Shown in pieces: positions 1 to 16,528 of a stretch of 16,665 nucleotides of DNA. Below the pieces are notes generated by a model, which worked only from the letters and a program-made list of their open reading frames with translations, ran no database searches and was not told where the DNA came from. Numbering within the stretch: position 1 is the stretch's first letter; every line of letters starts with the position of its first letter. The translations under genes and the position numbers were made by a program. Source of the DNA: a virus; UHGV virus genome UHGV-0187499; one strand, given 5' to 3'.

Positions 1-1227
1 CAGGTGGAAGTTGCGCAACGTGGGCTGACTGAAAAGCGTGCTGCTCTTACGGAGATGCAAAAAAAACTTGATGCCCAGAAAGCCATCAACGAGGAATTAC
101 AAGCAAAACGCGATAAATTGTTGTCTGCTAAAGGTGAAAAAACGAAAGAACGAGCGTTTAGCGACCAGCTGCGACATGTAAAACATAATCTTGCCATTGA
201 CGGAAAAACAGTGCTGGATAATGGCGCTGAAGTTAATTATGTCACGTCCGGCAGTGACAATTTCGTTACGATAGTAGCACCTGAAGGTAAATTCAGTATT
301 GATGCCAGTGCTGTCAAAGGAGGCAGTTTGGCAGATGCTGCAACCAAATTACTTAAAGCCTACCGAGAGCATAACGCAGATAAATATAAAGTTGATGTGT
401 TACCAGGCCAGCAGGAAGACCCCGAACCACCACAGACAGACCCCGAGACGAACCCAGTATCACAACCAGAGAGCCAGGATGTAGGTAAATACCACTATGC
501 ACTTCAATCTCGCCCGGCTGGTGTTGGTGCTGTGCCGGATGGAAATAAAGCCGTGCTTGATCGTCCTGACCAGGCTGATCAGTATTACGAATATGCTCGT
601 CACGGTATCATTACGTATGACCGTAAACTGACAGATGAAGAAGTCAGCCAGTACGAGTTGCTCTATCTTCCTGATGAAGATGAGCTGAAAGATTTTGCAG
701 GCCAATTGGTTGTGTCCAGCATGTCGAAACATATTGATGGCTATGTAGACCTGTTTGGCAGTGACCTGAAAACATTCAAGGCGCAAGTGAAAATTCTTTT
801 CCGCAAAGCGTTTCCAAACGTGGCGTATCCACTTGGTGATGGGGAGAACCTTTTCATTATGGACGTATATAACGCCCTTCAAAATCATTCAAACGAAGTA
901 ACGCCAGAGCCTGAATTAGCACCTGTAGTTGAGCCAGAATCACACCCACAAACAGCACCAGAGCAACAGCCAACGCCGGAAGACGCTGAAGAAGCGGCAA
1001 CTGAAGCTGATCAGGAAGCAGATAAAGCGTTGGAGTACCTTAAATCCGTCCCGGTGCAGTTTACATCTCGCGATCTGACGGTAATCAGTGCCGAACTTGA
1101 CCATGTGCAGGAAGCTGCAAACGCTCTTATCAGTGCTGGTCGATACGACGAGAACGAATCAACGGTTGGCGCAGCAGTTGACTACCTGATCAACATTCTG
1201 GCTGAAATTCAGCAGGGAGGTGCTTAA
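1..1227 (+). CDS. Hypothetical phage protein, 5'-truncated at the window edge; N-terminal coiled coil and two acidic Pro/Glu/Gln-rich linkers; possibly a virion or head-internal protein
   Basis: Open frame runs from base 1 (ORF track starts at GTG 4) to TAA 1225-1227. Coiled-coil-like N-terminus (EKRAALTEMQKKLDAQKAINEELQAKRDKL). Linkers PEPPQTDPETNPVSQPESQ and PEPELAPVVEPESHPQTAPEQQPTPEDAEEAATEADQEA. Stop overlaps the next start (TAATG). No family recognised. Confidence 0.55.
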   Translation, partial: QVEVAQRGLTEKRAALTEMQKKLDAQKAINEELQAKRDKLLSAKGEKTKERAFSDQLRHVKHNLAIDGKTVLDNGAEVNYVTSGSDNFVTIVAPEGKFSIDASAVKGGSLADAATKLLKAYREHNADKYKVDVLPGQQEDPEPPQTDPETNPVSQPESQDVGKYHYALQSRPAGVGAVPDGNKAVLDRPDQADQYYEYARHGIITYDRKLTDEEVSQYELLYLPDEDELKDFAGQLVVSSMSKHIDGYVDLFGSDLKTFKAQVKILFRKAFPNVAYPLGDGENLFIMDVYNALQNHSNEVTPEPELAPVVEPESHPQTAPEQQPTPEDAEEAATEADQEADKALEYLKSVPVQFTSRDLTVISAELDHVQEAANALISAGRYDENESTVGAAVDYLINILAEIQQGGA

Positions 1228-1601
1228 TGACTATCTCTGTTTTAGACCGTCTGAAATTGGGTAAAGAGCTATCAGATTTAATGCAGGCGCAGAAAACCGC
1301 GCCAGTATTACAACGCGTCGCCATTGGTAAGCAGATTGTTGATCTGATGCTTAAACTGGGGTTGGGTACTGCCGCTCAACCGATGTCGGAACCGCAACCA
1401 CAACCACAGTCTGATCCTGTTGCAGATGAAGTTCCTAAGATAGTGACTGACTTCCTGGGCGGCGTGTTCACAAAGTCCACACAAATGGAATTTATTGATG
1501 CGCTGCGTGGGATCTCAAACTATGTTGGCGAGTTCCTTACGTTGGAGCAGGCTAAAGAACAGACCATAAGCTGGGTGAAAGCCAACGGTTATGCCGGGTA
1601 A
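1227..1601 (+). CDS. Hypothetical small protein (124 aa), translationally coupled to the upstream gene
   Basis: ATG 1227 overlaps the upstream TAA (TAATG). Contains a PQPQPQ linker. Same strand and operon context as its neighbours. Confidence 0.55.
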   Translation: MTISVLDRLKLGKELSDLMQAQKTAPVLQRVAIGKQIVDLMLKLGLGTAAQPMSEPQPQPQSDPVADEVPKIVTDFLGGVFTKSTQMEFIDALRGISNYVGEFLTLEQAKEQTISWVKANGYAG

Positions 1602-1604
1602 TCA

Positions 1605-1626
1605 AAAGGGGGCGAAATGCCCCTTT
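1605..1626 (+). terminator. GC-rich hairpin just after the 1227-1601 stop; possible weak terminator, attenuator or RNA stability element
   Basis: AAAGGGGGC-GAAAT-GCCCCTTT, about 8 bp stem with a 5-nt loop, followed by a pyrimidine-rich tract (CACTTCTCTGTTCTC) rather than a clean U-run. Confidence 0.3.
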
Positions 1627-1695
1627 CACTTCTCTGTTCTCACATAAATCACACTCTTTTTACACTCACAGCTTTCTCTATAGTTGGAGTGTATT

Positions 1696-3081
1696 TTGAA
1701 CAAATCAGTTACTTCTGCGCTTTCCGAGGCCGCAGATATTAACAGCGTCATTGCTCTGGTTTCTTCATTAGAGAGGAAAGAAACACGCCTGGGGCGAAGT
1801 AGCTACGTTGTCACCAGCAAAGGTGCAGAGGTAAAGACGGCTTTTAAGGTCGTTGATGCCAGCAGTCTGATCATTTCGAACAACCTTGACGGTATGATTA
1901 ACCCGGCCTTCCCGGAAGAACTCCAACCACGAGATCGTACCCGGCTATCCAGCAAACTCCAGGTTAACCGTATTGCCTCCAATTTACGCCCGGCACAATT
2001 AACGGATTCCGGTATGAGCAGCCACGGAGCGCCGATAGTTGGTCCGGACAACGTTGTTGAATCCGGCAACGGAAGGAGTATGGGTATCTGGCGTGCCTAT
2101 GAGCAAGGACAGGCGGATGAGTATCGCCAGTACCTGATCGACCATGCGAAAGAGTTTGGTCTGAATCCTGACGAAATTTCGCAAATGTCTATGCCCGTAC
2201 TAGTGCGAGAAAGACTCACAGATGTAGACCGCGCTCAATTTGCCCGCGATTCAAACATTAGCGATCTGCAAGAGATGGCAGCAAGTGAAAAAGCGTATGC
2301 GGATGCGCAATTTCTCACTGAGAGCGTCATGGCGCTATTTAATCCTTCAGATGATGGAAATCTGCTGGCGCGGTCCAATGATGCGTTTATTCGTGCGTTT
2401 TTGCGCGAAATTGGCGATACAGCGACGGCAGGCTTGCTTACTGCCGATGGGCGTCCCACGAAACAGCTTATCGATCGCATCCAGAATGCAATTTTTGCCA
2501 AAGCGTACAAGGATGAAAGGCTTGTTCGGCTAGTGTCGGAAGAGCCAGATCCGGAAATGCGTAATATCCTGACCGCATTAAATACGGCAGCCAGCGATTT
2601 TGCGCAAATGCAGTCGCTGTCTGGCGACGCTCACCATGACGCAGTAACAGGCTTAGTGGACGGTATAGAGCAGGTTAATGGCCTGGATAAACAGGCTATT
2701 GCAGCGCTACAGGAAGCAATTAACCTTGTTCGTGAAGCAAAAGATAACGGTCAGGCAGTAGAAGAGGTGATCGCACAGCGTGGATTGTTTGGAGATAGCA
2801 CTCCGGAAGCAGAAGCGCTTGCTCTGTTTATTGTTGCCAACAACCGAAGCGCTAAGCGAATGGGGGCCGCTTTCAAGAAACTGGCGCAAAAAATTAACGA
2901 TGAACTTATTCACCAACAACAAGCGTTAGGCGATATGTTCGGCGGCGGAGATGTCGATCTGCGTAGCATTTTATCTGCCGTTTCTGATGAAATTGAGGGT
3001 GAATTTGGCGAAGGGAAAGGTCTGAACTTTGCTATGTTTGAAAATTCTACAGTTCTAAATAATTGCAGTATGGAAAACTAA
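1696..3081 (+). CDS. Hypothetical phage protein (about 461 aa); acidic, Gly-rich C-terminus; candidate head or internal protein
   Basis: ORF track 1684-3081. Preferred start is TTG 1696, with GGAG at 1686-1689 six nt upstream; TTG 1684 is an alternative. No Walker A, so not a terminase large subunit. Sits directly upstream of the portal-like gene. Confidence 0.55.
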   Translation: MNKSVTSALSEAADINSVIALVSSLERKETRLGRSSYVVTSKGAEVKTAFKVVDASSLIISNNLDGMINPAFPEELQPRDRTRLSSKLQVNRIASNLRPAQLTDSGMSSHGAPIVGPDNVVESGNGRSMGIWRAYEQGQADEYRQYLIDHAKEFGLNPDEISQMSMPVLVRERLTDVDRAQFARDSNISDLQEMAASEKAYADAQFLTESVMALFNPSDDGNLLARSNDAFIRAFLREIGDTATAGLLTADGRPTKQLIDRIQNAIFAKAYKDERLVRLVSEEPDPEMRNILTALNTAASDFAQMQSLSGDAHHDAVTGLVDGIEQVNGLDKQAIAALQEAINLVREAKDNGQAVEEVIAQRGLFGDSTPEAEALALFIVANNRSAKRMGAAFKKLAQKINDELIHQQQALGDMFGGGDVDLRSILSAVSDEIEGEFGEGKGLNFAMFENSTVLNNCSMEN

Positions 3082-3145
3082 GCCAACCGCTGAAATCACA
3101 TACTGATTATGCTGCCGCAAAACTGGAAACAATTTGCGGTGATTC

Positions 3146-4828
3146 ATGGCAACGAAAGACAAAAACAAAGGCTTTCTGTCAGCATTGAAGAAAGCCTTCA
3201 ACGGTGGTGATGTTACGCCCGCCGATCCGGTCGTTTTTACGAGCGGGCATAGTGTCGTTGCTCGTTCCGGCCTGTCTGCTTTACGTCCAGGTATACTGGG
3301 GAGCAACAGCGATGGCATGACGAGTGCAGCAGATTCAATTTCTTTATCCGCTGAACTGCCCGGCGAGCGCCTGCAAAAGTACAACATCCTGGAAACGATG
3401 GCTAAAAGCCCGACTATCTCGACGGCTTTAAACATTCACATTGCACATGCGCTTGCGCCTTCAAAAAAAACCGGACAAGCATTCATCCTTTCGCCAAAGG
3501 ATGGTTCCGATGCTGAGGCAGTAAGTAGATGTGAAGAGTTAACCGCTGATTTGGGGGCGATGATTAATGACGGACTTCCTTCATGGGCCATGATTATGGC
3601 TATCTTTGGGGTGTCTTATGTCCGACCTTATGCTGAACAGGGCAGGGGGATAACAGGCATTGAGTCCAGTTATTACACTCTGCCACACTTCGTCCAGGAG
3701 TTTTATCGTGGTAGCCAGCTGGTAGGTTTCAGTGGTGATTACATTCTGGATACGCATAGTTTGCGCAGAGTAATAACCGAACCGTGGAATCTGGTTTCCA
3801 TGAAAAATCCCTATTGGACACCACAGCATAAAGTTATTCCGGTTAGCTACGGCACAAAAGGGTACTCACTGTTAAGTGATCAGGCTGATAAGCCGTTAAT
3901 GGAGACGCAGAATTACGGAACTTCATTCCTGGAATACAGCTATGAACCTTACCTTAATTTATGTGCTTCGCTCGCCGCGCTGAAATCAACGCGAAATAAT
4001 GCAGCCAAAATTGACCGCCTGATTGCTCTTACGACGAACACACTGGACCCGGTTAATGCGGCGAACTATACGCGTGGCGTCAGCCAGGCATTGAAGCGTC
4101 ATAGTGACCTGGTGGCGCAAAGGTCGATTAATGCCAACGCTATTCCGACTGTGCTTAACCATCTGATACCTGTTATGGGAGACGGGAAGAACGGCATCAC
4201 CATTGATACGCAATCCATACCCGCAGATATCAGTGGTATCGAAGACGTTATGTTTCACCTCCGGCAGCTTGCTGCAAGCCTCGGCATTGACGCAACAATG
4301 CTTGGCTGGGCTGATCAGATGAGCGGAGGGCTTGGAGAAGGCGGCTGGCAGCAAACTGCTATCCAGGCTGCATTGCGTGCGAACTGGATCAGACAGGCCG
4401 CCCAGCGAACTATTTATCGGCTTCTGGACATTCACCTCGCTTATAAATACGGCAAGGTTTACACCGAAACAAACCGCCCTTATGACGTGCAATTCAACTC
4501 AATGAACACTGCTATCCAGGAAGAGGAAAACCGAGAACTGGATGCACGCGCCAACTTTGTTGCTGTCATCTCCCAAATTATGGACCAGATCCAGAACAAC
4601 CCGAAACTGGCTGGTAGCGACGCGTTTATGCGTTATCTGTTCACTGAGCAGTTGCACATCGACGATGACACTCTCAACACCATGATCAAAGAGTTTAAGG
4701 CGAATGAATCAGAGCAAAACAACGAGCATGGTATGTACGAATCCGCGCCGTTGTCGTCCGGTGACGATCCGGAAAACTGGACGCCAGAACAGTTAATAAA
4801 CTTTGCAAAATTTGTGATGAGCAATTAA
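3146..4828 (+). CDS. Portal-like protein (candidate), 560 aa
   Basis: 560 aa with no NTPase motifs, an acidic C-terminal tail, and a position immediately upstream of a protease/scaffold-like gene that it abuts closely. The assignment rests on size and position, not on a recognised motif. Confidence 0.5.
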   Translation: MATKDKNKGFLSALKKAFNGGDVTPADPVVFTSGHSVVARSGLSALRPGILGSNSDGMTSAADSISLSAELPGERLQKYNILETMAKSPTISTALNIHIAHALAPSKKTGQAFILSPKDGSDAEAVSRCEELTADLGAMINDGLPSWAMIMAIFGVSYVRPYAEQGRGITGIESSYYTLPHFVQEFYRGSQLVGFSGDYILDTHSLRRVITEPWNLVSMKNPYWTPQHKVIPVSYGTKGYSLLSDQADKPLMETQNYGTSFLEYSYEPYLNLCASLAALKSTRNNAAKIDRLIALTTNTLDPVNAANYTRGVSQALKRHSDLVAQRSINANAIPTVLNHLIPVMGDGKNGITIDTQSIPADISGIEDVMFHLRQLAASLGIDATMLGWADQMSGGLGEGGWQQTAIQAALRANWIRQAAQRTIYRLLDIHLAYKYGKVYTETNRPYDVQFNSMNTAIQEEENRELDARANFVAVISQIMDQIQNNPKLAGSDAFMRYLFTEQLHIDDDTLNTMIKEFKANESEQNNEHGMYESAPLSSGDDPENWTPEQLINFAKFVMSN

Positions 4829-4841
4829 CCGGAGGGAAATA

Positions 4842-5840
4842 ATGCAATCACTGAATACTGTTACGGATCGCTTCTCCCTGGTAGAGAAAATCCGCAAACA
4901 CACACCGCAGAACAACCGAAATTACGTCATTCAGTCGGTACGAGACACATTCAACTCGCCAGAAACAAAAGAGCGTATCGCGCTGGGTGAGATGTATGGT
5001 TATTACGGTCATGGTCGCCGGGCGATGCACTATAACAAAACGAAAAGCCTGAACTTGCCGGAAGTCTCTGTTGTGATGGTAGATGGGAAGCCTGTTGTAT
5101 TGGAGAACGTGCCATCCAACAGGACTATCGACATTTCGATTGACGACAACGGCATTGTTACCCATACGCAGGAAATACTGGATACAGACACCGGGCGTAT
5201 TGTTCAGGGCATGATTAATTCTGGTGCTGGTGGTTGGTCGTGGGCTACATCTGGTCCAGATTCATCGGTATCCCTGGTAAAGTCTTTCCACGGCTTTGAT
5301 TACGTAACTGTGCCTAACTATATCAGCCTCGACAAGAAAAGCCTGATGCTTGAATCAGCAGAAGAGCGCGATGCGGCTATTCATGCAGCACTTATCGAAC
5401 AAGGTTTTACCGATAACGCTGCTACGGATCTGGTTCACCACTTTTCAGCAATGAAAAATCAGCAAGCCATGCTCGAATCTGCACATCGTGAAGCCCTGGA
5501 ATCAGAATTGATGCTCCTTGAAGTGGAAAACATACAGCTTCGAGATAAGCTGCGCGCTCAAACAGCGATGATGGAAAGCCAGGGGGAAAATGCAAAGCAA
5601 TGCCGCCGGATTTTGCGTGACGCTATCCAGGAAATGCCTGTTTTTATCAGCGCAGAACAGCGTCGGGCGCTCTGCCGTATGCAGTCTGAAGATGATGCTC
5701 GCATAGTGGCTGCGATGCTTGAATCTCTGGGGGCAAATGCGACTTATGGCTTGCCGATATCAGGCAAGAAAGAGCCGGAGTTATCGCCGAAGGAGAGCAA
5801 AAATACTACCCCATTACTCTTCGTTTCGCGACGGGTATAA
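4842..5840 (+). CDS. Head-maturation protease / scaffold-like protein (candidate), 332 aa
   Basis: Strong RBS: GGAGGG at 4831-4836, five nt before ATG 4842. Globular N-terminal half (GYYGHGRR, SGAGGWSWATSG) and coiled-coil, helix-rich C-terminal half, as in protease-scaffold fusions. Lies directly downstream of the portal-like gene. Confidence 0.4.
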   Translation: MQSLNTVTDRFSLVEKIRKHTPQNNRNYVIQSVRDTFNSPETKERIALGEMYGYYGHGRRAMHYNKTKSLNLPEVSVVMVDGKPVVLENVPSNRTIDISIDDNGIVTHTQEILDTDTGRIVQGMINSGAGGWSWATSGPDSSVSLVKSFHGFDYVTVPNYISLDKKSLMLESAEERDAAIHAALIEQGFTDNAATDLVHHFSAMKNQQAMLESAHREALESELMLLEVENIQLRDKLRAQTAMMESQGENAKQCRRILRDAIQEMPVFISAEQRRALCRMQSEDDARIVAAMLESLGANATYGLPISGKKEPELSPKESKNTTPLLFVSRRV

Positions 5841-5868
5841 CCGCTGAATGAAGTTAAATTTCTAACAT

Positions 5869-6040
5869 AGTGTATTTATATACACTGTTGATCCTGTCCG
5901 ATGTGATCGAGTAGGATCGCGGTCACTGCTCCGGTAGCGATTGCCAAAAAAAGCAAAAGCCGCTGAGAAGCGGCTTTTGGGTGTATAAATCCACTGGCAT
6001 AGATTTATACGGTAGATAGATTTTTTCACGGAACTATCTG
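5869..6040 (+). promoter_or_regulatory. Dyad-rich, GATC-dense control region upstream of the HTH protein gene
   Basis: Inverted repeat AGTGTA-N6-TACACT (5869-5886). Three GATC sites within 29 bp (5890-5893, 5905-5908, 5915-5918), inside the dyad GATCCT...AGGATC. 9-bp inverted repeat GTATAAATC (5983-5991) / GATTTATAC (6002-6010). Inverted repeat AGATAG (6014-6019) / CTATCT (6034-6039) directly abutting GTG 6041. Confidence 0.35.
5955..5978. terminator. Rho-independent terminator closing the head-gene operon; possibly bidirectional
   Basis: Stem GCCGCT / AGCGGC with a GAGA loop, flanked by an A-tract upstream (AAAAAAAGCAAAA) and TTTT downstream, so it could terminate in both directions. Confidence 0.55.
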
Positions 6041-7003
6041 GTGAATATTTTAAATTCAATTTCAGTAACTTTCAACACTTCTGAGTATAAAAACAACACT
6101 GAATACCACAAAAAAATCAAAGGTCATCAGTTGAGTTTTTTTGCTCGTCATAGCGGTTTTCTTTCCCCTTCACATAGCGCCATTATTGCCGAGTTCGCCA
6201 ACCTGGCAGGAGCTACCGATGAATACATGATCCGTCGCTCATATGCTGATATGTCCGAGATTACAGGACGCAGTATTTCTACTGTGCGCCGGGCATTTGC
6301 TGAAGCGACGAAGTGCGGAATGCTTGTTAAGCAACATCAGGTAGCGAATAACAATGCTCAGGTGTGTAACGTATACCGGTTTACAACACAATTTCTCCAC
6401 TTCATTCATGTAGCAATGGAGATAGGGGGTAAGCAGGGCATCAAATTTGCGAACGCCACAAAACTGGTTAAGCAGTTGATTTCAAAGGTTCGGTATTTTT
6501 TTGAAACTGGGAACCCCCTGTTCAAATTGAACAAGTCCCCCCATGTTCAAAATGAACAGCCAATAGAAAATAAGAGTCACTCTATAGCCAAAAGAAGAGA
6601 AAGATCATGCGCGGTTCAGCCAAAGGCTTCACCAGCGGATAGTTCTCAAGCGGATAATGGGATGCTGGATAAAAAACCAGTAATCAGGGAAGAACATACC
6701 AACCACTGCCTGGCGGCGGCAAAAGCGAGAGCTGCAAAGCGTCGTTCAGACGAGGGGCACGCAAAACGGCAGGCTCTGTATCGTACCGCTGAAAAGCTGG
6801 CAAAAAAATTTGCATGGATACGTAGTGCCGCTACCGCAGTGAATAAGCCTAAACAATCCAGTGCCCTGGATTTCTCAATGGATTATTCTGGCTCCCAGGG
6901 GTGTGCAACCATTGGTGAAGCCTTTGACCTGATGAAACAGCGTGGCTATCGGTCTGAATTTGACCGGGAGGATTGGTCAATCCCTGCGGGATTTAGGGGA
7001 TGA
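6041..7003 (+). CDS. HTH DNA-binding protein; candidate replication initiator or regulator; start codon uncertain
   Basis: HTH-like segment MSEITGRSISTVRRAFAEATKCGMLVKQ and a basic C-terminal region (KRRERS..., KARAAKRRSDEGHAKRQ). The first 80 nt of the maximal ORF are AT-rich and may be leader. Alternative in-frame starts are TTG 6131 (AAAGG seven nt upstream) and ATG 6227, which is preceded by an AGGAG-driven 3-codon mini-ORF whose TGA overlaps it. Stop is TGA 7001-7003. Confidence 0.5.
   Translation: MNILNSISVTFNTSEYKNNTEYHKKIKGHQLSFFARHSGFLSPSHSAIIAEFANLAGATDEYMIRRSYADMSEITGRSISTVRRAFAEATKCGMLVKQHQVANNNAQVCNVYRFTTQFLHFIHVAMEIGGKQGIKFANATKLVKQLISKVRYFFETGNPLFKLNKSPHVQNEQPIENKSHSIAKRRERSCAVQPKASPADSSQADNGMLDKKPVIREEHTNHCLAAAKARAAKRRSDEGHAKRQALYRTAEKLAKKFAWIRSAATAVNKPKQSSALDFSMDYSGSQGCATIGEAFDLMKQRGYRSEFDREDWSIPAGFRG
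6514..6559. repeat. Two tandem palindromic iteron-like repeats embedded in the HTH protein coding sequence; origin- or operator-like
   Basis: CCCCC-TGTTCA-AAT-TGAACA (6514-6533) and CCCCCCA-TGTTCA-AAA-TGAACA (6536-6558), period about 25 bp, followed by a purine-rich A-tract region (6562-6606). Confidence 0.6.
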
Positions 7004-7046
7004 CCTGTGTGTCTACAAAACATCCCAATGATCGGAAAATGCTCGC

Positions 7047-7112
7047 TCGATGATTTGTATTAGAAAATTAATTTGCTGTTTCTAAATCGGAATGTATGAT
7101 CTGCATCATCGA
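7047..7112 (+). promoter_or_regulatory. Candidate sigma70 promoter bracketed by an 8-bp inverted repeat
   Basis: TTGCTG (7073-7078), 16-nt spacer, TATGAT (7095-7100). Flanked by TCGATGAT (7047-7054) and ATCATCGA (7105-7112). Inner dyad TTAGAAA (7060-7066) / TTTCTAA (7079-7085) overlaps the -35. Confidence 0.3.
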
Positions 7113-7141
7113 CTGAAGTCATCCATTGCTGAAATTTTTAG

Positions 7142-7170
7142 TTGATCTTCCATGTTTTCAGGCTTATATT
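7142..7170 (+). promoter_or_regulatory. Candidate sigma70 promoter for the antisense-RNA / antirepressor operon
   Basis: TTGATC (7142-7147), 17-nt spacer, TATATT (7165-7170); the predicted start site would lie about 25 nt upstream of target copy 1. Confidence 0.3.
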
Positions 7171-7200
7171 CATGCCGTCGTAGCAAATTCTGCGACCAGG

Positions 7201-7222
7201 TTTGACAGCCTGAATGATTGTG
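7201..7222 (+). promoter_or_regulatory. Upstream copy of the antisense target pair (a1/b1-like): TTTGACAGC ... TGATTGTG
   Basis: TTTGACAGC at 7201-7209 and TGATTGTG at 7215-7222. This is a direct repeat of the pair at 7370-7406 and is complementary to CTGTCAA and CACAATC in the candidate RNA. Confidence 0.4.
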
Positions 7223-7290
7223 CGGACAACCGCAGATTTCCGATATTGCGGTATTTTTGTGTCCGTTAAACCGCGTTACGCCCAAATTAT

Positions 7291-7364
7291 GGTGGGGCGT
7301 GATGGGGAGGCTTCGGCCTGCTGGTTTCACAATCGCCAGTCTGTCAACCCTGTCACGTCCTGCC
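7291..7364 (+). ncRNA. Candidate c4-like antisense regulatory RNA, about 74 nt, structured
   Basis: Hand fold: a 12-bp closing stem (7291-7302 with 7353-7364, including three G-U pairs); a C(UUCG)G tetraloop hairpin at 7308-7319; a second hairpin (stem 7320-7324 / 7336-7340) presenting CACAATC (7328-7334) in its loop; and single-stranded CTGTCAA (7341-7347). Both boxes are complementary to both target copies. Confidence 0.4.
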
Positions 7365-7369
7365 ACCTG

Positions 7370-7409
7370 TTTGACAGCGGGTAGCAGGTTGTTAAACCTG
7401 ATTGTGAGG
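7370..7409 (+). promoter_or_regulatory. Downstream copy of the antisense target pair (a2/b2-like), overlapping the RBS of the 74-codon ORF
   Basis: TTTGACAGC at 7370-7378. TGATTGTG at 7399-7406 overlaps the Shine-Dalgarno GTGAGG (7404-7409), eight nt before ATG 7418. Confidence 0.4.
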
Positions 7410-7417
7410 CCGTAACT

Positions 7418-7642
7418 ATGGTTAACGCCAATCCTTGCTCACGTCCAGAATTCATCTGGCGTTTCCACTCCCTGCAAAAACACTGCGATCACTTCGCAAT
7501 TGCCGCAACCGAAAAAGAAGCCCGTTCTCTGATCCCTGATCAGTATGGTGTTCTTACTGGTCGTTTCTCTACTTCCCCACAACCAAACACTAATCCTTGG
7601 TATCGCAATATTACCAATCCCGGCATTGCGGAGGCACATTGA
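7418..7642 (+). CDS. Small leader ORF (74 aa), translationally coupled to the downstream antirepressor-like gene; icd-like by position
   Basis: GAGG eight nt upstream of ATG 7418. Stop TGA 7640-7642 overlaps ATG 7642 of the next gene. Its RBS is covered by the b2-like box. Confidence 0.5.
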   Translation: MVNANPCSRPEFIWRFHSLQKHCDHFAIAATEKEARSLIPDQYGVLTGRFSTSPQPNTNPWYRNITNPGIAEAH

Positions 7643-8349
7643 TGGATATCTGCATTCTTGAAAAGCCATCAATGACCAGCATTGAGATCGCGGAACTGGT
7701 GGGAAAACGTCATGACAATGTGAAGCGTACCATTGAAACATTAGCCGAATCCGGCGTTATTGTTCGTCCTCAAATTGAGGATGAACCAAAAATAGATGTA
7801 ATGGGGCGTTCTCGATTAATTCAGGTGTTTCGATTTAGCGACGAGCAAGGCAAACGAGACAGTATCATTGTAGTCGCACAGCTTTGTCCTGAGTTTACTG
7901 CCCGGCTTGTGGACCGCTGGCGCGAACTGGAAGAACAAGTACGCCAGCCGTTGACCGAAATAGAGATGATCGCCGCAATGGCTGCAAATGCAGTTCAGCA
8001 GCAAAAGCGGCTTCATGTTGTTGAGTCAAAGGTTAGCCAGGTGGTAGAAACCGTCGAGCAAATCAAGAAAGGCAATATTCCGGAAGGCTACATTGGCTAC
8101 CGCCAGCTGGCGGCAAAATGCGGCCTGACCGAAGCCAAATGTCGCAACCTGGTTAACGCTTTCCGGATTCCCACCGATACACATGAGTTTTTAACTCCAG
8201 AGGGGGTATTGTCGCGTCGTTCCATCGTAGCCTTATCTCCCTTCATGAATGCTTTTAACCGGATGATGTCGGAGGCTGAACACCGAGGAAAACGCTGGTA
8301 TCACCCCAAAATGGGGCAATTCCAGGTGATCGGTTGGGGAGGTGAATGA
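7642..8349 (+). CDS. Rha-family phage regulatory / antirepressor-like protein (235 aa)
   Basis: N-terminal motif MTSIEIAELVGKRHDNVKRTIETL matches the Rha-family signature. GGAGG at 7629-7633, eight nt before ATG 7642. The ORF-track start at 7597 is an upstream in-frame extension that overlaps the leader ORF. Confidence 0.75.
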   Translation: MDICILEKPSMTSIEIAELVGKRHDNVKRTIETLAESGVIVRPQIEDEPKIDVMGRSRLIQVFRFSDEQGKRDSIIVVAQLCPEFTARLVDRWRELEEQVRQPLTEIEMIAAMAANAVQQQKRLHVVESKVSQVVETVEQIKKGNIPEGYIGYRQLAAKCGLTEAKCRNLVNAFRIPTDTHEFLTPEGVLSRRSIVALSPFMNAFNRMMSEAEHRGKRWYHPKMGQFQVIGWGGE

Positions 8350-8546
8350 TGGACATCATGCAGGCGGTAAAAAAAATCAGGGAAGAACAGGCTGAAGTGT
8401 GCCGCCGTAAAGCATGGAGTGTTGGTGTATGGGCCTGGCCTGATAATTACTCTACTACCGGATGGTTTTGTATTAATGGACTCCAGATCCGGGAAGTTTA
8501 TTTATCGACGGCTGATATAGTCGGTAATGATTGGATCGTGACTTGA
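8346..8546 (+). CDS. Small hypothetical protein (65-66 aa) coupled to the Rha gene; Trp-rich; possible small accessory or anti-defence protein
   Basis: ATG 8346 or 8349 overlaps the Rha TGA (8347-8349). GGGGAGG at 8336-8342 favours ATG 8349. Contains KAWSVGVWAW and a C-terminal ...DIVGNDWIVT. Confidence 0.5.
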   Translation: MMDIMQAVKKIREEQAEVCRRKAWSVGVWAWPDNYSTTGWFCINGLQIREVYLSTADIVGNDWIVT

Positions 8547-8554
8547 AGCGTGAT

Positions 8555-8579
8555 GCCCCGGCCTGGCCGGGGCTTTTTT
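8555..8579 (+). terminator. Rho-independent terminator after the Rha operon
   Basis: GCCCCGG-CCTGG-CCGGGGC followed by TTTTTT (8574-8579). Confidence 0.65.
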
Positions 8580-9064
8580 CATGCCTCATTAGTTGAGGTT
8601 GCTGCGCCTCCGACTGGTAACAGAGCGGTATTGCGTGGTTCGCCAGCAGGCCAGCGATAGCCAGACACTCTTGATGTTGGGAATGCGCGAATATTAACCG
8701 CATCCCCCTGGTTCCCACCCAGGACAAGCAGATCGCCATTGGCGCGGCGTCCGACAACGAAGCCTACGTGCCCACCGCCTACGCGGGTAAATACAACGAT
8801 ACATCCGTATGCCGGTGTATCTAATTTCTCGCCCCAATCCAGATAGGATTTTGCCGACTCAAATCTTGTTGAGCGGATGCCTACACGTTCCAGCATTGCA
8901 CCGACAAATGCTGCGCACCACGGCGTTTCATCGTCTTTAATTCCGCCGCGCTTGATGTCGCGCCAGAACTGAACGATTTCAGGGTTGTGTTTAGCGCCTT
9001 TTATTTCAGTCAGGCCAATGTGCTTACGGGCTTCAATTAGCCAGCGAGGTTCAATGTTTGCCAT
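8579..9064 (-). CDS. Cys/His peptidase-like protein (CHAP / NlpC-P60-like; resembles the TIGR02594 family as recalled), putative peptidoglycan hydrolase
   Basis: Minus-strand ORF of 161 aa with a strong RBS (GGGAGA five nt before ATG, read on the minus strand). Cys in PWCAAFVG and His in GGGHVGFVVG have the spacing of papain-like cell-wall peptidases. It is the only clear minus-strand gene in the window. Confidence 0.7.
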   Translation of the reverse strand: MANIEPRWLIEARKHIGLTEIKGAKHNPEIVQFWRDIKRGGIKDDETPWCAAFVGAMLERVGIRSTRFESAKSYLDWGEKLDTPAYGCIVVFTRVGGGHVGFVVGRRANGDLLVLGGNQGDAVNIRAFPTSRVSGYRWPAGEPRNTALLPVGGAATSTNEA

Positions 9065-9119
9065 ATTTTTCTCCCGGTCATGGGTTAATAAGTAGGCAAA
9101 CTATGGGGAGTATGTGATT

Positions 9120-9147
9120 TTGACGGTAGTATCTTCCCCGTGAAAAT
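9120..9147 (+). promoter_or_regulatory. Candidate promoter for the giant methyltransferase-helicase gene
   Basis: TTGACG (9120-9125), 16-nt spacer, GAAAAT (9142-9147). If this -10 is real, GTG 9140 cannot be the start codon, which supports TTG 9215. Confidence 0.3.
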
Positions 9148-9214
9148 AACATTCTCCATACCCTCTCAACCGTACCGCATAGCGGATTTTTTACGGTTTA
9201 GAGGGGGTAATCCT

Positions 9215-12200
9215 TTGGATAAACTACTTCATTCAATCAGTGAAGCCTCCAGCTTAGGCGAACTGATTGAGATTGTTAGTCGGTTGCATAAATTACGTGC
9301 TGTTGCGACCTTTGGCGTTAAGAAAGTCGATGGTGTCAGCATTCAAAAAACACGGCGGGCAGCAAACAACGCCGCAGTAGAGCTTCTTAATTCCCTTCCG
9401 CCCGGCTTCGATGGGGCGAAATTAACTGACGAACAGCGTCAGATTCTTGCCGGGTATACCGGTGAAGGCGGCCTGACAGATGGTGAGGGCAGCCAATACG
9501 AATACTACACGCCACAGTTTATGGCTGAAGGTATATGGGATCTGTTTGCTGACTACGGTATTGATGGCGGGCACGTACTGGAACCATCAGCGGGCACAGG
9601 TATTTTCCAGGAGACAAAACGACAGGGCATGATAATGACCAGCGCCGAACTGTCTCCGATTTCCGGTCGAATAAACCAGCTTTTGCACCCGGAAGACGAT
9701 GTGAATATCGGGGCGTTTGAGGCGCTGGCGGCGAAAGACGCAACGTATGATCACGCTGTTGGTAACGTACCGTTTGGTGAAGGGCGTTCCGGTGTCGCCG
9801 GGCTTGATCCGGCATATGCAAACGAGAAGAACGTTGGCAATTACTTTGTGCTGCGCACTATCGACAAGGTTAAGCCAGGTGGGCTTATCGTATTGGTGGT
9901 GCCGAATGGCATGACCGATGGTACGAAATATAAAAAATTGCGCGATAAAGTCAGCCGTAAAGCGGAATTTTTGGGCGCACATCGTATGCCTTCCGGTACG
10001 TTCAGCGAATCCGGTACAGATACCGTGGTGGACGTATGGGTATTGCGTAAACACCCGGAAACCTTCCTGGAGATGATCCCCGACACGGATGATTCAACAC
10101 TCAAATCGGCAAACGTCCTTTGGGATGCCTTCCTCAAAGGAAAATGGTTTACAACCGAAGGGAAGCGATTTGTTTACGGCGACATGGAACGTACCAGCTT
10201 CCGCAATACCCTGGTGGTGAAAAAGGACGGTCGTGTATCCAATGAGTCGATGAAAACCGCGCTATCTCGTCGCTTTGATAGTCGCATTAATTGGGATTTG
10301 CTCGGCGTAACTACTCAGGCATGGCAGGGCGCGAAAGTGGGCGATAAACGCCTAGTAGGCGGCATCTGGCATGAGTTTGATGGCCTGAAATGGGTCAAGG
10401 ACACGACAACCAAATCCTCCGCGCTTGATGTAAGTCGATATGGTGTTTCGACATTCGGTGATCTGCAAACAACGTTCCAATCAACAAACGGCATTCTGGC
10501 TCTGTCATGGGGGCAGATATCCGCGATCGCTTCCGACTATCCATCGGTTATCAGTGATGAAGTAGCGGCAATGATTCGCTTTGCTGGGAAACAACGCGAA
10601 AAAGACCGTGAGCGCATTATGCGCGGTGCGCTGATCGGGCAACTTATCAATAAAGCGCTGGATAAGCGTAACCTTGGTGAAAACGTCGATGATGAACTGG
10701 CTGATGCCGCACGTCTGACGGCTGCCGAAGTTGCTAAATATGGCCCACCACACGCCATTAAGCTAAACGACATTACCGAAGCGGGCGCGAAGAACTGGCT
10801 GACATTCACCGGGAACGTCAATCAGGACGGTGAAGCATCCGATCTGCTGTCCGGACGGCTTGATGTTAGCAAAGGGGCTGCTGGTATTGATTTCACTCGT
10901 CCGGAACAGGTTGTGACACACCTTTTCAGCGATGTTGCCCTTAATCCTATCAATCTTGATGACTTCCGCGAGGCGTTTAAAGGCGAACTGCCAGAAGACG
11001 ACGATCAAGCACTGGAATACCTGGCGAAATTCGACGATATCGCTATTGATGGATATGGTTGCCTGCTACCGATGGGCCGTGCCACTAGCGGTGATATTAA
11101 ATCAAAAGTGGCACTGCTGGTGGGCTGGCGAGACGCGTCCACAGGAGAGCGGAAGGCCAACTTTGAGCGCCAGCTTTCAAAAATCGAAGAGAAACGCACG
11201 TTTACACCGCTGAACAAAGTCACGGTAAACCTTAACGCACGGTGGTTGGATCGCCGCCTGATAAAAGAGTTCCTGGCAGAGCAGGGCTATGACGAGTTTA
11301 AGTATACAGAACCCGACCTTAAGGTTGAGAACGGCATTCTGGTATCCCCGGACGATTACGAAGGTAAGGACGGGGTATTTACTGGCTACCAGCTACGAAC
11401 CGTAAACGGCAAAAACGGGAACGAGTTCAAGAAAGCGAATAACAAAGATGGCTTCCTGAATCAGCTTGAGAACTACCTGAACGGTGTTAAACCGCGCGGA
11501 CAGAACGCTAACGAGTACCTGGACAAAATCGCCCAGCTTGAGACGAGTTTTAACGACTGGTTAAGAACTCACCCGCAGGCAGACCAGATCGCCCGCGATT
11601 ATAACGACGCCTTTAACGGTTATATTCCATTTACCCATTCAGACGCACCCCTGGGGCTTGAAGGCATCAGCGGGAAACGTATACCGCTTTCTTACCAGAA
11701 CGAAGAAGTTCGTCGTCTGTCGGAAGATGGGCGCGGTATTATGGGATTCGGAACTGGTTTGGGTAAAACGACGACCGCGCTGGCACTGGAAGCCTATAAC
11801 TTTGAAACCGGGCGAACCAAACGTACCTGTATCGTTGTTCCAAAGGCCGTATACCAGAACTGGTATCACGAGGCACAGAGCTTCTACAGTGCAGATGCCT
11901 TCGCCAATATGATGTTTATCGGTCTGGACGAAGTGCGCGATGGTGACGGAAATATTCAGACTGCCCCAGTGCTCGACCAGGACGGCACCCCGCGACTTGA
12001 TAACGACGGCAATCCGATCACCCGTAATGTTGTTAAAGAATCCGCCAGTGCCGTTATCGCTCAACGCATGAACATGATCCCATCGTCGAACTGGCGAACG
12101 GTCATCATGACAAAAGAGCAGTTCGCATCTATCCCGTTGCGCGATGAAACCATCGGAGAAAACTCACAGCAGGCTGTCTTTAATGCCGCCGAAATGGGGC

Positions 12201-15200
12201 GTCTTGACCTGGCGTCAGGCAAGCACCGTGATGCGCAGAAGAAGAACAAGATTAAGGACCAGGCCGCGAATACCGGTACAGCGAAGAAGCAGAATATCCC
12301 GTACTTTGAGGATATGAACTTCGATAGCGTAATTGCCGACGAAGGGCACAACTACCGCAACTCCTTTGGTGCCGGGCGTGAAGCGGGGCAACTGGCATAT
12401 TTACCTAATCCGGCGGTATCCAAAATGGCCCGTGACATGGCTGTAAAAGCTGCGTACATGATGAAACGTCACAATGGGCGCGGCGTCGTAATGCTGACAG
12501 CAACTCCGCTGGTTAATAGCCCTATTGACGCCTTCAACATGCTGTCAACGGTGATCCCTCAGCACGAGTGGATGCACATGGGAATTATTACCCCTGACGA
12601 CTTTGTGCGAGTGTTCGGTAAAACAGCCACTGTTCAGGTCCAGAAAATTTCTGGCGAAGTGGAAGAGAAACAGGGGCTGGTGGGCTTCCAGAACCTTGAT
12701 GGTCTGCGTGGCATTTTCCACCGCTGGACAACGCTTAAAACGGCTTCCGATGTTGGTGCAACGGTAAAAATCCCGGATATCGTCGAAAACACCTTGCAGA
12801 TCCCAATGACTCCAGAGCAGCAAGCAGCTTATGAAGAGCTTCGTAAACGCGCGCAGGAGTTAAGTAGTAAAGATGCGCTGACGGTCGATGAAAACGGGCA
12901 TATCACAAACGAAAAACCGGATGATTTCATCTTCTCCATCATCCGCGACATGGATAAGGTTGCTATAGATCCTGATCTGTATGCCAGTGCGATTACATTC
13001 CAGTTCCCCGTTGAGCTTGCAGACAAGGTAAAAGCTATTGCTGATGCCCTGCCAAAAGTAGCTGGCGGTAAAGTGGCAGATGATGCAGACGAGGCCGAAG
13101 AAGATGGCGCTGGTGGGCTGGTCAGTACGCGTACCAGCAAGGTAGTGAAGACCACCTTTAGCGAACATCCGTCGCATGTTGAAATACGTGCTGGCATTGA
13201 ACTGGAAGCTGAAATACTGAAGGCCATTGCGGCTGCCGGTATTGATATGCAGCAGGTATCACACCCCATCCCGCCGAAGTATGCCGCGCTGATCGAAAAC
13301 CTTCGTGAAGGTCTGAAGAACGGTAAACAAATCGTCTTCATTGATGAAAAAGCCCAGCACCAGAAGCTGCGCCGTATTATTGCCAGTGCACTGCAAATGC
13401 CGGAGCAGGAGATAGGCATTATCAATGCGACGACAGTTAGCCAGGCTGGCGGCGTCAAGCTGAAGAAGGTGAATAAGCCGACTGAACCTACGCCAAACAA
13501 AGACGGTGAATACAAAGAAGGCGCATGGGAAACCTACTACAGTAAACTGGCCCAATATGAGGATTATCTCTCTGCTAAAAATGATGCTGGCCTTGAGGGG
13601 ATGGAAGGTATTGCTGCCGACTATAACGAAGGGCGCACGCGAATCATTATCTGTAACAAGAAAGCCGAAGTAGGTATCAACCTGCATATTGGAACGACCG
13701 ATATTCACCACCTGACACTACCCTGGACTCCTGCCAGTATCGACCAACGAAATGGGCGAGGTGCGCGCGTAGGTTCTCCGCAAGAGAAGGTTAATGTTCA
13801 CTATTATTGTGGCAAAGGCACATTCGATGACTTCCGTCTGGATACGCTTAAACGTAAGAAAGACTGGATCAAGATGGTGATGACCTCCGATATGTCAGAG
13901 ATCGCCAATGGTGATGCGGATGACGCTGATGAACGCGCCATTATGCTGGCGGCAAATCCGGAAGAACGACGCGCAATTATGGCTCGTCAGTCGAAAGAAC
14001 GTGAGGAACGCCTGCGACTTAAAGCGCAACGCGAAGCCAATAATGCTCTCGATAACTACCTGAAAGCGGCGAATGCTGCCGGGAAGGATATCGGCATGAT
14101 GGAGGCAGAACTGAAAAGCGCGATGGAGCAGGTGCAACGATACCAGAGTGATCTGGATGGACTGATTAAGAGCGGCATCAACAAAAACGGACAGAAATAT
14201 ACGCTTTCAGCACTAAGCAAAGCTAAAAAAAGTGTGCGTGAATTGCGATTTGCAATCACCAGGGCGAAGGACGCGGATACTGTTATGAAACGCTCTCGTG
14301 GTGATGTGGAGCGTGCTATTAAGTCTGGTGTGCTGGATATCAGTATCGATGTTATTCAGAACCCGCAGGAGTATATTCGCACTGGCAAGAACATCCTGTT
14401 GCATAAAGGTAGTTACTACCGTGCAGTCATTAATGCTGAATACGAGACAACGGCGATTGTACGCGTGACACAAATTGAGAGCGAAAAAGCGCAATTCACC
14501 TGCCGCGTCGCCTGGCTGGATAGAGCAAGTCGCCACTCTCGTTCTCCTGGCTCAACCATGACATTACCGTTTGACTCAGTGGTTGAAGCGGTAACATTTG
14601 AAGAGGGGGTGGCTGAATCACGAGAAATAGCGGCACGTGGTGTTCAAAGCCACCAGCTTTCAACCTCTCTTTCTCGCGATCAATTCTATGACGCTATTCG
14701 TAGCGGTGTTATGCGGGTAACTGGGAAAGATCGTGGCGGTTGGCAAGGAGCACCGGATGTAAACTATTGGGCTTATCGTAACGCCAATGGTCAGATTCAA
14801 ATGGCCTTTACCTATGGCGGGATGATTGGTAAAAAAATTAGCGCATCTGGAAGTGACGAGATAGCACCTGAACAATGGATTTATCCTGATGTAAACGACG
14901 AAGCATTAAAACGCGAAGTCGCGAAAATCCAGACAGGTGATAACCCACTTCGTATTTCAGAGGCAGAAGGTTTTCTCCGTGCATTGTTTGGCTTCGATTA
15001 TGAGCAAGGTATGGAGGCATGGGGCGCTCAGGCCACTATGGATGATGTGGTCAGGGCGTTCGATGGCTGGATGGCAGGGCGCGATCTCTCCGGGCGTTCA
15101 CTTGAAAAAGTGACTCAGGAAGATGTCCGCAGCTTGTTCCGCAAGCCAAATGGAGAAGGCCTGGAAACGTACTGGCGAGGCGTGCTTTCTTTCCGCGATT

Positions 15201-16057: not shown

Positions 16058-16062
16058 CAGAT

Positions 16063-16093
16063 AAGGAGCGGCCCCAGCCGGGGCCGAATTTGA
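16063..16093 (+). promoter_or_regulatory. Hairpin between a Shine-Dalgarno sequence and the start codon of the gene after darB; possible split RBS or RNA processing/stability element
   Basis: AAGGAG (16063-16068), then a 7-bp stem CGGCCCC / GGGGCCG with an AGCC loop (16069-16086), then AATTTGA and ATG 16094. There is no U-tract, so it is not a typical terminator. Confidence 0.35.
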
Positions 16094-16528
16094 ATGACGA
16101 CATTAATTGATACAGTTAAACCGACAGAATCTTACCTTGAAGAAATTTTGCCGCAGGCGCTCAATGGCAGGAGTGAAGACGAGTTCCTGACAGTATATCT
16201 CGCTGGGATGGTTGAAAGACTAAAGAAAGATCCACAGCTTTATCACCTTTATGGTCCGTGGTGGCCTGCGCTTAAAACGATATTGCTGGAGCGCGGCGAC
16301 ACATCATTTGGACAGGTTGTAGATAGCGATGTGGCAGAGATCTACAGAATGAGTCGCCCGGCGCTTACGGTTTTAGCTGGACATCTGTATTCGAGCGATC
16401 GCCTGGAAAATGACGCGGTATACAATCCCGTTCATGCTCTGGAAGTCGCGGCTTATGCCGATGATACAGAGCCATATGTATACACAAGCTACGATGAGTC
16501 TATAGAGAAATATCGAATTATGGGGTAG
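16094..16528 (+). CDS. Hypothetical protein (144 aa) co-transcribed downstream of darB
   Basis: ORF with ATG 16094 and TAG 16526-16528, same strand, 36 nt after the darB stop. No family recognised. Confidence 0.55.
   Translation: MTTLIDTVKPTESYLEEILPQALNGRSEDEFLTVYLAGMVERLKKDPQLYHLYGPWWPALKTILLERGDTSFGQVVDSDVAEIYRMSRPALTVLAGHLYSSDRLENDAVYNPVHALEVAAYADDTEPYVYTSYDESIEKYRIMG

Follow-up and report, generated by a model that had tools for sequence, protein, structure and literature searches.

What kind of operon is formed by three overlapping genes in the virus genome UHGV-0187499, and what does the small protein at its end do? The genes lie at positions 7418–8546 of a stretch of 16,665 nucleotides, which was analysed at its full length and is referred to here as the window. 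The first part of the question can be answered with high confidence: the region is a secondary immunity operon of the immI type from a D6-like plasmid prophage of the P1 family, and it is controlled by a C4 antisense RNA. For the second part, we consider it likely that the last gene encodes a minimal, divergent Tad2-like protein with a remodelled pocket, linked to Tad2 by fold or by shared ancestry.

The three open reading frames (ORFs) were read directly from the plus strand. ORF1 (7418–7642; ATG at 7418, TGA at 7640–7642) is an icd-like leader cistron of 74 residues and encodes a putative FtsZ-directed inhibitor of cell division. ORF2 (7642–8349; ATG at 7642–7644, TGA at 8347–8349) encodes a Rha/Roi-type winged-helix protein of 235 residues, and ORF3 (8349–8546; ATG at 8349, TGA at 8544–8546), the last cistron, encodes the DUF2829-like protein of 65 residues. 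At both junctions one base of the sequence TGATG (7640–7644 and 8347–8351) belongs to the stop codon as well as to the following ATG, and GGAGG stands 6–7 nucleotides upstream, giving the common motif GGAGG-N6/7-TGATG. These overlaps had been described in an earlier note on this stretch, and the overlapping arrangement is confirmed. TGATG is kept at both junctions in 22 of 22 D6-type loci, comprising the window and 21 relatives and called type A below, and GGAGG precedes both junctions in all 22, except for one GGAGT at the icd/ORF2 junction. The three-gene order with both overlaps is found in every one of these loci and in at least 109 PLSDB plasmids.

For the third gene, the earlier note had left the choice between 65 and 66 residues. 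The ORF is real, and only the shorter version is conserved. The alternative ATG at 8346 is GTG in the 21 related loci, and the Shine-Dalgarno sequence GGAGG at 8338–8342 lies 6 nucleotides from the start at 8349 and only 3 from that at 8346. Because the upstream ATG is peculiar to the window and because of this spacing, the start at 8346 was rejected, and ORF3 is taken to have 65 residues from 8349, as called by the annotators of D6. A terminator scan places a strong intrinsic terminator directly 3' of ORF3 on the plus strand (8555–8580), with a stem of 8 bp made up of G and C only (GCCCCGGC/GCCGGGGC) and a T run after it; the next gene (8579–9064) is on the opposite strand. Minus-strand ORFs within 7418–8546, such as 7439–7741 and 7816–8016, were set aside, as the plus-strand genes account for the region through family matches, selection and the D6 annotation.

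The elements of C4 control are arranged upstream of ORF1 on the plus strand. A promoter scan identifies a putative sigma-70-like promoter (TTGATC-17-TATATT, 7142–7170), which aligns with the −35 and −10 elements of the annotated P1 promoter P1c4 (formerly P51b). It is followed by a leader (7164–7222) in which the targets of C4 occur in a first, upstream copy, a1 (TTGACAG, 7202–7208) and b1 (GATTGTG, 7216–7222); the Rfam model c4-a1b1 (RF03163) matches at 7164–7216 with 54.4 bits against a gathering score of 46.7. The C4 RNA itself is found at 7285–7370 (RF01695, 68.4 bits against a gathering score of 45), with the mature RNA at about 7291–7367 by homology to P1. Its predicted fold has a z-score of −3.8 and leaves two loops unpaired and exposed, b' (CACAATC, 7328–7334) and a' (CTGTCAA, 7341–7347). 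The targets on the icd leader (7371–7409) are a2 (TTGACAG, 7371–7377) and b2 (GATTGTG, 7400–7406), at the same positions as the annotated a2 and b2 of P1, and b2 runs into the icd Shine-Dalgarno sequence GAGG (7406–7409), 8 nucleotides before the ATG. The four sites were placed by alignment to the annotated P1 record and by complementarity, which is perfect between CTGTCAA and a1/a2 and between CACAATC and b1/b2. The earlier note had inferred an icd-like leader in a c4 context, and both the RNA elements and the protein match reported below bear this out. On the upstream side of the promoter, ATTGCTGAAATTTTTAG, a 17-mer at 7125–7141, adjoins the −35 element and contains ATTGCT, one half of the C1-operator consensus of P1; it differs from the full consensus at 7 positions and has no second copy in the window, and no operator claim is made for it.

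The pairing was then considered in a survey of 84 icd loci from IMG/VR, P1, D6 and others, 81 of which form the P1/D6 group. In 81 of the 81 loci of this group (L001, L002 and L009–L088), each of the two C4 loops is complementary, without a mismatch, to both copies of its target. The b' loop occurs in five variants (CACAATC, CACTAAC, CGTAAGT, CATTCGT and CACAAGT) and the a' loop in two (CTGTCAA and CTGCTAA), and each of the nine a'/b' combinations observed comes with matching, compensatory changes at both targets. Because loops and targets co-vary in all 81 loci, there is strong comparative evidence that the pairing of C4 with its targets is functional in this lineage. The same survey gives a clean natural example of combinatorial RNA–RNA specificity, from which immI heteroimmunity groups among plasmids can be predicted. 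The b' specificity loop of the window (CACAATC, with b sites GATTGTG) differs from those of P1 (CACTAAC) and D6 (CGTAAGT, with b sites ACTTACG), and a distinct type of immI heteroimmunity is therefore predicted for the window, in spite of its 94% identity to D6. The principle of loop specificity is reportedly known from P1 and P7, through work of Citron and Schuster in 1990. Identical loop combinations were found with P1-type as well as with D6-type downstream cassettes.

The comparison with Escherichia phage D6, a P1-family plasmid prophage, covers window positions 7000–8900 at the identity just given. D6 orf19-orf18-orf17 (MF356679 / NC_050154) agree with the window in all three genes, in their order and in both overlaps, and are the same system, already annotated. 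Protein identities to the window are 100% for Icd (orf19), 86% for the Rha protein (orf18), in which residues 22–66 are replaced in the window relative to D6, and 97% for ORF3 (orf17). The D6 annotation reads 'inhibition of cell division / Icd-like' for the first gene, 'putative anti-repressor (similar to HK97 Roi)' or 'anti-repressor Ant' for the second, and 'hypothetical' for orf17. In PLSDB, 80% or more of 7100–8600 is present on at least 109 plasmids of E. coli and Salmonella, and all listed matches are at least 95% identical; the RefSeq labels on these plasmids are 'Icd-like', 'Rha family transcriptional regulator' and 'hypothetical protein'. The icd and Rha gene assignments are thus standard annotation in D6 and in more than 100 plasmids.

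Similarity to P1 and P7 DNA is confined to 7157–7529, at about 91% identity, and ends inside icd. It covers the promoter, a1/b1, C4, a2/b2 and the first half of icd of the immI region (c4 - icd - ant1/ant2), and the two systems have a common logic in which the loops of an antisense RNA pair with a site overlapping the icd ribosome-binding site. Beyond this point they differ. The overlap of the icd stop with the next start is ATGA in P1 and TGATG in the window, and the gene after icd encodes Ant1/Ant2 with the ANT/KilAC domain in P1 and a Rha/Roi-type protein without similarity to them or this domain in the window. The window has the Tad2-like gene as an extra third cistron, no kilA after the operon, and repL upstream of it, whereas repL is downstream in P1. 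The description of the locus as a mosaic immunity module, made earlier from its letters, is apt, and the mosaic is the standard D6 arrangement and not peculiar to this genome.

ORF1 belongs to the Icd family. It matches the NCBIfam model NF033153 (phage_ICD_like) over residues 12–51 with 40 bits against a cut-off of 25, and phrog_1426 with an E-value of 6e-39, and it is 57% identical to P1 Icd. Residues 12–51 form the core of P1 Icd that is sufficient for the division block via FtsZ (PMC11897509), and by hand count on the alignment 25 of these 40 residues are identical in ORF1. Five synonymous and no non-synonymous substitutions separate the gene from icd of D6, and across 16 icd alleles the ratio of non-synonymous to synonymous substitution rates (dN/dS) is 0.04, so that the gene is under purifying selection. 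Because the substitutions are nearly all synonymous, ORF1 is translated and constrained as a protein and is not merely a leader. By analogy with P1, it probably blocks cell division through FtsZ.

ORF2 occupies the slot of P1 ant1 after icd with a similar overlap of stop and start. As had been proposed, it is a Rha-family protein and not a P1-type Ant. Residues 11–98 match Pfam Phage_pRha (PF09669) over model positions 1–91 of 91 with 36.6 bits against a gathering score of 29.9, and HTH_24 is also matched in this N-terminal domain, which is a winged helix-turn-helix. BLASTP finds no similarity to P1 Ant1 (E 0.37), and the ANT/KilAC domain (PF03374) present in P1 Ant1 and KilA is not matched in ORF2. 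The score against TIGR02681 (phage_pRha) is 18.2 bits, below the cut-off of 45.95, and a sequence search of the PDB with ORF2 gave no match. The best PHROG is phrog_63, 'anti-repressor Ant' (E 2e-45), a label that reflects annotation and not a test. HK022 and HK97 Roi and the Rha-family proteins of lambdoid phages have both the Phage_pRha N-terminal domain and the C-terminal domain in common with ORF2. Selection is uneven along the protein: dN is 0.16 in the N-terminal half and 0.016 in the C-terminal half, which is conserved between related phages with a dN/dS of 0.08. Most of the 33 amino acid differences from D6 fall within residues 22–66 (window positions 7705–7839), a hypervariable patch inside the winged-helix Rha domain that looks like a possible specificity determinant.

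What ORF2 does is judged from its position in the ant slot only. Its most likely role is to antagonise a prophage repressor through an architecture unrelated to that of P1 Ant, and we give this putative antirepressor activity about an even chance. The serious alternative, somewhat less probable, is that ORF2, as a Roi/Rha-type protein, binds specific DNA sequences and regulates early lytic genes or replication, so that the likeness to P1 immI would be restricted to the control region. The winged helix-turn-helix N terminus (Phage_pRha, HTH_24) and the lack of ANT/KilAC, unlike in P1 Ant1 and KilA, fit such a regulator, as do the hypervariable residues, which lie within the DNA-binding domain, and the neighbourhood of the gene, which adjoins repL. 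The lambdoid relatives fit as well. A protein 62% identical to ORF2 (P0005, described below) is about 60% identical to proteins of Stx, lambdoid and Klebsiella phages that are annotated 'Roi' or 'DNA-binding protein', and the lambdoid-type Roi genes lie in the early-right region beside cro, with no c4 or icd upstream and no Tad2-like partner or extension. Nevertheless, ORF2 stands exactly in the ant1 position with the same overlap, its best-matching PHROG families are labelled anti-repressor (by annotation, not by tests), and the hypervariable patch would equally fit recognition of diverging repressors.

For ORF3, the earlier note had made a tentative comparison with small anti-defence proteins of the DUF2829/Tad2 type, based on a Trp-rich core and a C-terminal DW motif. 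Fold and remote homology support this, and the DW aligns with D84-W85 of Tad2; formal family membership and part of the ligand pocket do not follow. The ORF3 family is tiny, as judged by a word-indexed protein search and an exhaustive phmmer search of 1.8 billion proteins. One phmmer match (P0004) was rejected as spurious, as it is a PKD-repeat protein of 825 residues in which a stretch of 20 residues was matched nine times. ORF3 matches phrog_7385, of unknown function, and nothing in NCBIfam; a profile of the family gave one weak and irrelevant match among species-representative genomes, and against PDB chains ORF3 and a four-sequence profile gave chance-level matches only (lectins, YvgN) and no Tad2. 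Four diverged relatives do score against PF11195, the DUF2829 model, namely P0001 (16.5 bits, E 0.012), P0006 (14.0 bits), P0009 and P0010 (11.9 bits each). Their alignments are colinear and span most or all of the domain, all under the gathering score of 25. The Tad2 of SPO1 was identified as gp34.65 by its length and residue positions, and 200 PF11195 proteins were collected. When eight ORF3-family sequences were compared with 60 PF11195 proteins using hhalign, residues 1–65 aligned to 5–90 with a P value of 4.9e-4 and a low probability of 32%.

A single-sequence AlphaFold2 model of ORF3 was too poor (predicted local distance difference test, pLDDT, of 64.9) and was replaced by a model based on an alignment of eight sequences, with a pLDDT of 82.7. 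The predicted order of elements is alpha1, four strands, a short helix and a final strand. When this model was compared with the PDB using Foldseek, the top 14 matches were all Tad2 chains (SPO1, Myroides), with probabilities of 0.80–0.99, at least 0.96 in 13 of the 14, and template modelling (TM) scores of 0.54–0.59; the next match fell below 0.35. A fold search of BFVD likewise returned about 22 top matches that were nearly all 'Thoeris anti-defense 2-like/DUF2829'. The fold of ORF3 is thus Tad2-like in prediction, and the order of secondary structure (alpha1, beta sheet, short helix, final strand) is that of the Tad2/DUF2829 sponges SPO1 gp34.65, ModTad2, HgmTad2 and AcrIIA7.

The two families also agree along their sequences. 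The N-terminal A...R..W and C-terminal D..(x)4DW motifs align over the full length, although ORF3 has 65 residues and Tad2 has 89, and ORF3 residues Trp-23, Asp-56 and Asp-61–Trp-62 correspond to Tad2 Trp-25, Asp-79 and Asp-84–Trp-85, which are invariant in both families. In SPO1 Tad2, the bound glyco-cyclic ADP-ribose (gcADPR) is contacted by Trp-25, Asn-26, Trp-73 and Asp-79, and an insert between beta2 and beta3 containing helix alpha2 forms the dimer interface (bioRxiv 10.1101/2023.05.01.538930). Tad2 residues Asn-26, Gly-27, Lys-28, Trp-73 and Gln-77 are not conserved in ORF3, and the ORF3 family has a signature of its own, CRR...WxWP, unlike Tad2. Twelve columns are invariant across about 60% divergence in the ORF3 family, including Cys-18, Arg-19, Arg-20, Trp-23, Trp-28, Trp-30, Pro-31, Asp-56, Asp-61 and Trp-62. 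Members of the Tad2 family bind many very different immune signals (PMC12393519), and because of this the remodelled pocket of ORF3 would still be compatible with binding of a ligand. Among type-A alleles the dN/dS of ORF3 is 0.66, which fits a fast-evolving counter-defence gene. Also unlike Tad2, ORF3 lies in a c4-controlled lysogeny-switch operon, and in a paralogue it is fused to a Rha-type protein.

This fusion is found in P0005 (313 residues), which is 62% identical to ORF2 over its residues 1–237 and continues through a Pro-rich linker into an ORF3 homologue at 42% identity. Its gene stands behind its own C4 RNA and an icd of 71 residues, with a TGATG junction, an arrangement called here the type-B cassette. 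D6 has a second, paralogous cassette of this type at 74022–75178 (orf83/orf82; L136, NC_050154), next to ref, pmgF and simB. Both cassettes are present on 7 IMG/VR contigs, and a 'second c4/icd region' has already been noted (PMC6799933). The gene after icd is legible in 23 type-B loci (among L003–L005, L114–L133 and L136). The fused gene is intact, with 308–313 residues, in 16 of the 23, and in 7 (L124, L125, L127, L129–L131 and L133) the Rha part is frameshifted, truncated or deleted and the Tad2-like part is intact. In L133, most of the Rha part is lost, and a truncated icd is followed by an ORF of 84 residues with the Tad2-like domain at its end. In L016, the icd is of the D6 type, and the gene after it is the fused form. 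In the type-B cassette of L003 (5521–5599), the element upstream of C4 scores as Rfam isrK, with 59 bits, rather than as c4-a1b1. Losses are also seen elsewhere: in L017/L134 the Rha gene and most of ORF3 are gone, and L019/L112 have a frameshifted ORF3, the same as P0003.

A stand-alone form was found at 3746–4235 of L089, an unrelated plasmid-like contig of 90 kb with ParM/StbA genes. Here, a1b1 and C4 directly precede an ORF3-family gene of 68 residues, with a b2 site at the start codon of the Tad2-like gene and a terminator immediately after it, and there is neither an icd nor a Rha gene. The variable C4 loop of L089, TCTTGAGTG, matches CACTCAAGA in the leader and again just before the start codon. 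The Tad2-like domain is thus always found under C4 control, as a coupled cistron, as a fusion to a putative antirepressor or alone, and none of the Roi-type homologues that lie outside c4 cassettes, in lambdoid and Klebsiella phages, was found to carry it. The domain tracks with C4 control rather than with Rha proteins and persists when the Rha part is lost, and an autonomous function is therefore favoured. Given its family, the most likely role of ORF3 is that of an autonomous small-ligand sponge or anti-defence factor that would be kept off in lysogeny, an assignment that we make tentatively.

Because of the type-B fusion, a physical partnership between this domain and the Rha protein is still to be taken seriously as an alternative. 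ORF3 would then be a detachable subunit or domain of a Rha-type antirepressor, made in fixed proportion through coupling and used for oligomerisation, target binding or regulation; P1 Ant, which works as an Ant1/Ant2 pair, offers a loose parallel. This is suggested by the type-B paralogue itself, a single Rha protein with the domain at its C terminus that is intact in D6 orf82 among others, by the fused form behind a D6-type icd in L016, by the overlap of ORF3 with the Rha stop codon in 22 of 22 type-A loci and by the loss of part of the Tad2 ligand pocket. We nevertheless regard it as rather unlikely. In L089 the Tad2-like gene follows c4 without a Rha gene, in the seven damaged type-B loci the domain has outlived its Rha part, and close Roi-type homologues elsewhere function without it. 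Moreover, the C-terminal half of the Rha protein has the low dN/dS given above and ORF3 differs by about 60% between cassettes, with no obvious co-evolution, and a 1-nucleotide overlap can be fused or split by a single indel without functional meaning.

The operon is proposed to work as follows. A single transcript from the promoter at about 7142–7170 would carry a1/b1, C4, a2/b2, icd, the Rha/Roi-type gene, the Tad2-like gene and the terminator. C4 would be cut out of this transcript, and its exposed loops would pair with a2 (7371–7377) and b2 (7400–7406). Because b2 runs into the icd Shine-Dalgarno sequence, this pairing would occlude the ribosome-binding site and block translation of icd. 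The anatomy and the analogy with P1 suggest translational coupling, and because of the TGATG overlaps, ORF2 and ORF3 would be expressed only if ribosomes (and, as in P1, transcription as well) pass through icd; the P1 record annotates icd as 'apparently required for expression of ant'. One antisense RNA would silence all three proteins in the lysogen, and production of the Icd, Rha-type and Tad2-like proteins would be joint, only at an early stage of infection or after escape from C4. Control in P1 is reportedly also exerted by premature transcription termination within icd, as Biere, Citron and Schuster are said to have described in 1992. Taken as a whole, with the protein roles given above, we favour this reading with moderate confidence.

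Several points weigh against it. A literature search found no experiment on D6-type components, and what is said of coupling and silencing is transferred from P1, from the notes in its annotated record and from work attributed to Riedel (1993) and Biere (1992). The window has no match anywhere to the P1 C1-operator consensus within 3 mismatches, and control of the operon by the primary repressor is thus putative and may use a diverged D6-type operator. The Roi/Rha family is a DNA-binding family beside cro in lambdoid phages and is not known as an antirepressor there. As for ORF3, it has no Pfam hit at E<1 and fails formal membership of DUF2829, even its best relative reaches only 16.5 of the 25 bits set by Pfam, the hhalign probability is low, and the predicted structure was built on only eight sequences. 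Two of the Tad2 ligand contacts are not kept in the family, where Asn-26 is replaced by Ser, Pro, Gly or His or is retained as Asn and Trp-73 is replaced by Val, Ile or Phe, and the beta2–beta3 insert with helix alpha2 that forms the Tad2 dimer interface is absent. The dN/dS of ORF3 could also mean relaxed constraint. The domain is joined to the Rha protein in no fewer than 16 intact type-B genes, and for this a physical partnership is an explanation no worse than autonomy.

Two further alternatives are improbable. In one, the Tad2-like module would be a ligand-binding sensor in the lysis-lysogeny switch, tethered to the Rha-type antirepressor in type B and co-translated with it in type A. The ligand of such a sensor would be a host immune-signalling nucleotide (a cyclic ADP-ribose isomer or a cyclic nucleotide), which would couple the antirepressor to the alarm of abortive infection and prompt induction or lysis. 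In a weaker form of this idea, the c4 antisense system may be a general 'silent in lysogeny' switch by which phage-plasmids gate anti-defence cargo, as in L089. The other, still less probable, holds that ORF3 is a decaying or functionless remnant of a once-fused C-terminal domain that is like Tad2 in having a simple alpha+beta fold only, and it could draw on the dN/dS of 0.66, the one frameshifted allele (L019, also P0003), the one near-complete deletion (L017/L134) and the weak sequence statistics, but the 65-residue ORF is intact in 21 of 22 type-A loci, the invariant columns have survived the divergence of the family, start codon, Shine-Dalgarno sequence and terminator are conserved, and the separate lineage of L089 keeps the Tad2-like gene as its sole c4-controlled cistron.

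The c4-icd-ant logic is textbook P1 biology, and its D6 version, with a Rha-type protein, already stands in public annotation; neither is new. What appears to be new is that ORF3 is Tad2-like and that it is tied to C4 control in split, fused and stand-alone forms, and a literature search found no description of this assignment or of these forms. More than 100 phage-plasmids of E. coli and Salmonella carry the ORF3 gene under the label 'hypothetical', and its product has the predicted fold of the Tad2 immune-signal sponges. If ORF3 binds an immune signal, an RNA of lysogeny immunity would here gate the expression of a counter-defence gene of the Tad2 type, and the gene would provide an inexpensive, testable entry point to how phage-plasmids of the P1 family, major carriers of resistance genes, cope with Thoeris, with the cyclic-oligonucleotide-based antiphage signalling system (CBASS) and with the pyrimidine cyclase system for antiphage resistance (Pycsar). 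If ORF3 instead works with the antirepressor, a sponge fold would have been recruited into a genetic switch.

The neighbours of the operon, at window positions 1–7003 and 8579–16528, are homologues of the anti-restriction and virion genes of P1. On the upstream side these are darA-like (4–1227), ddrA (1227–1601), ddrB (1684–3081), the portal gene prt (3146–4828), pro (4842–5840) and repL (6041–7003). Downstream, the minus-strand gene at 8579–9064 is TIGR02594/lysozyme-like, and it is followed by a darB-like helicase/methylase gene (9140–16057, 2305 residues) and an ulx-like gene (16094–16528). Between ddrB and prt, the window seems to be about 1 kb shorter than D6, which has a DUF4145 gene and orf23 at this place.

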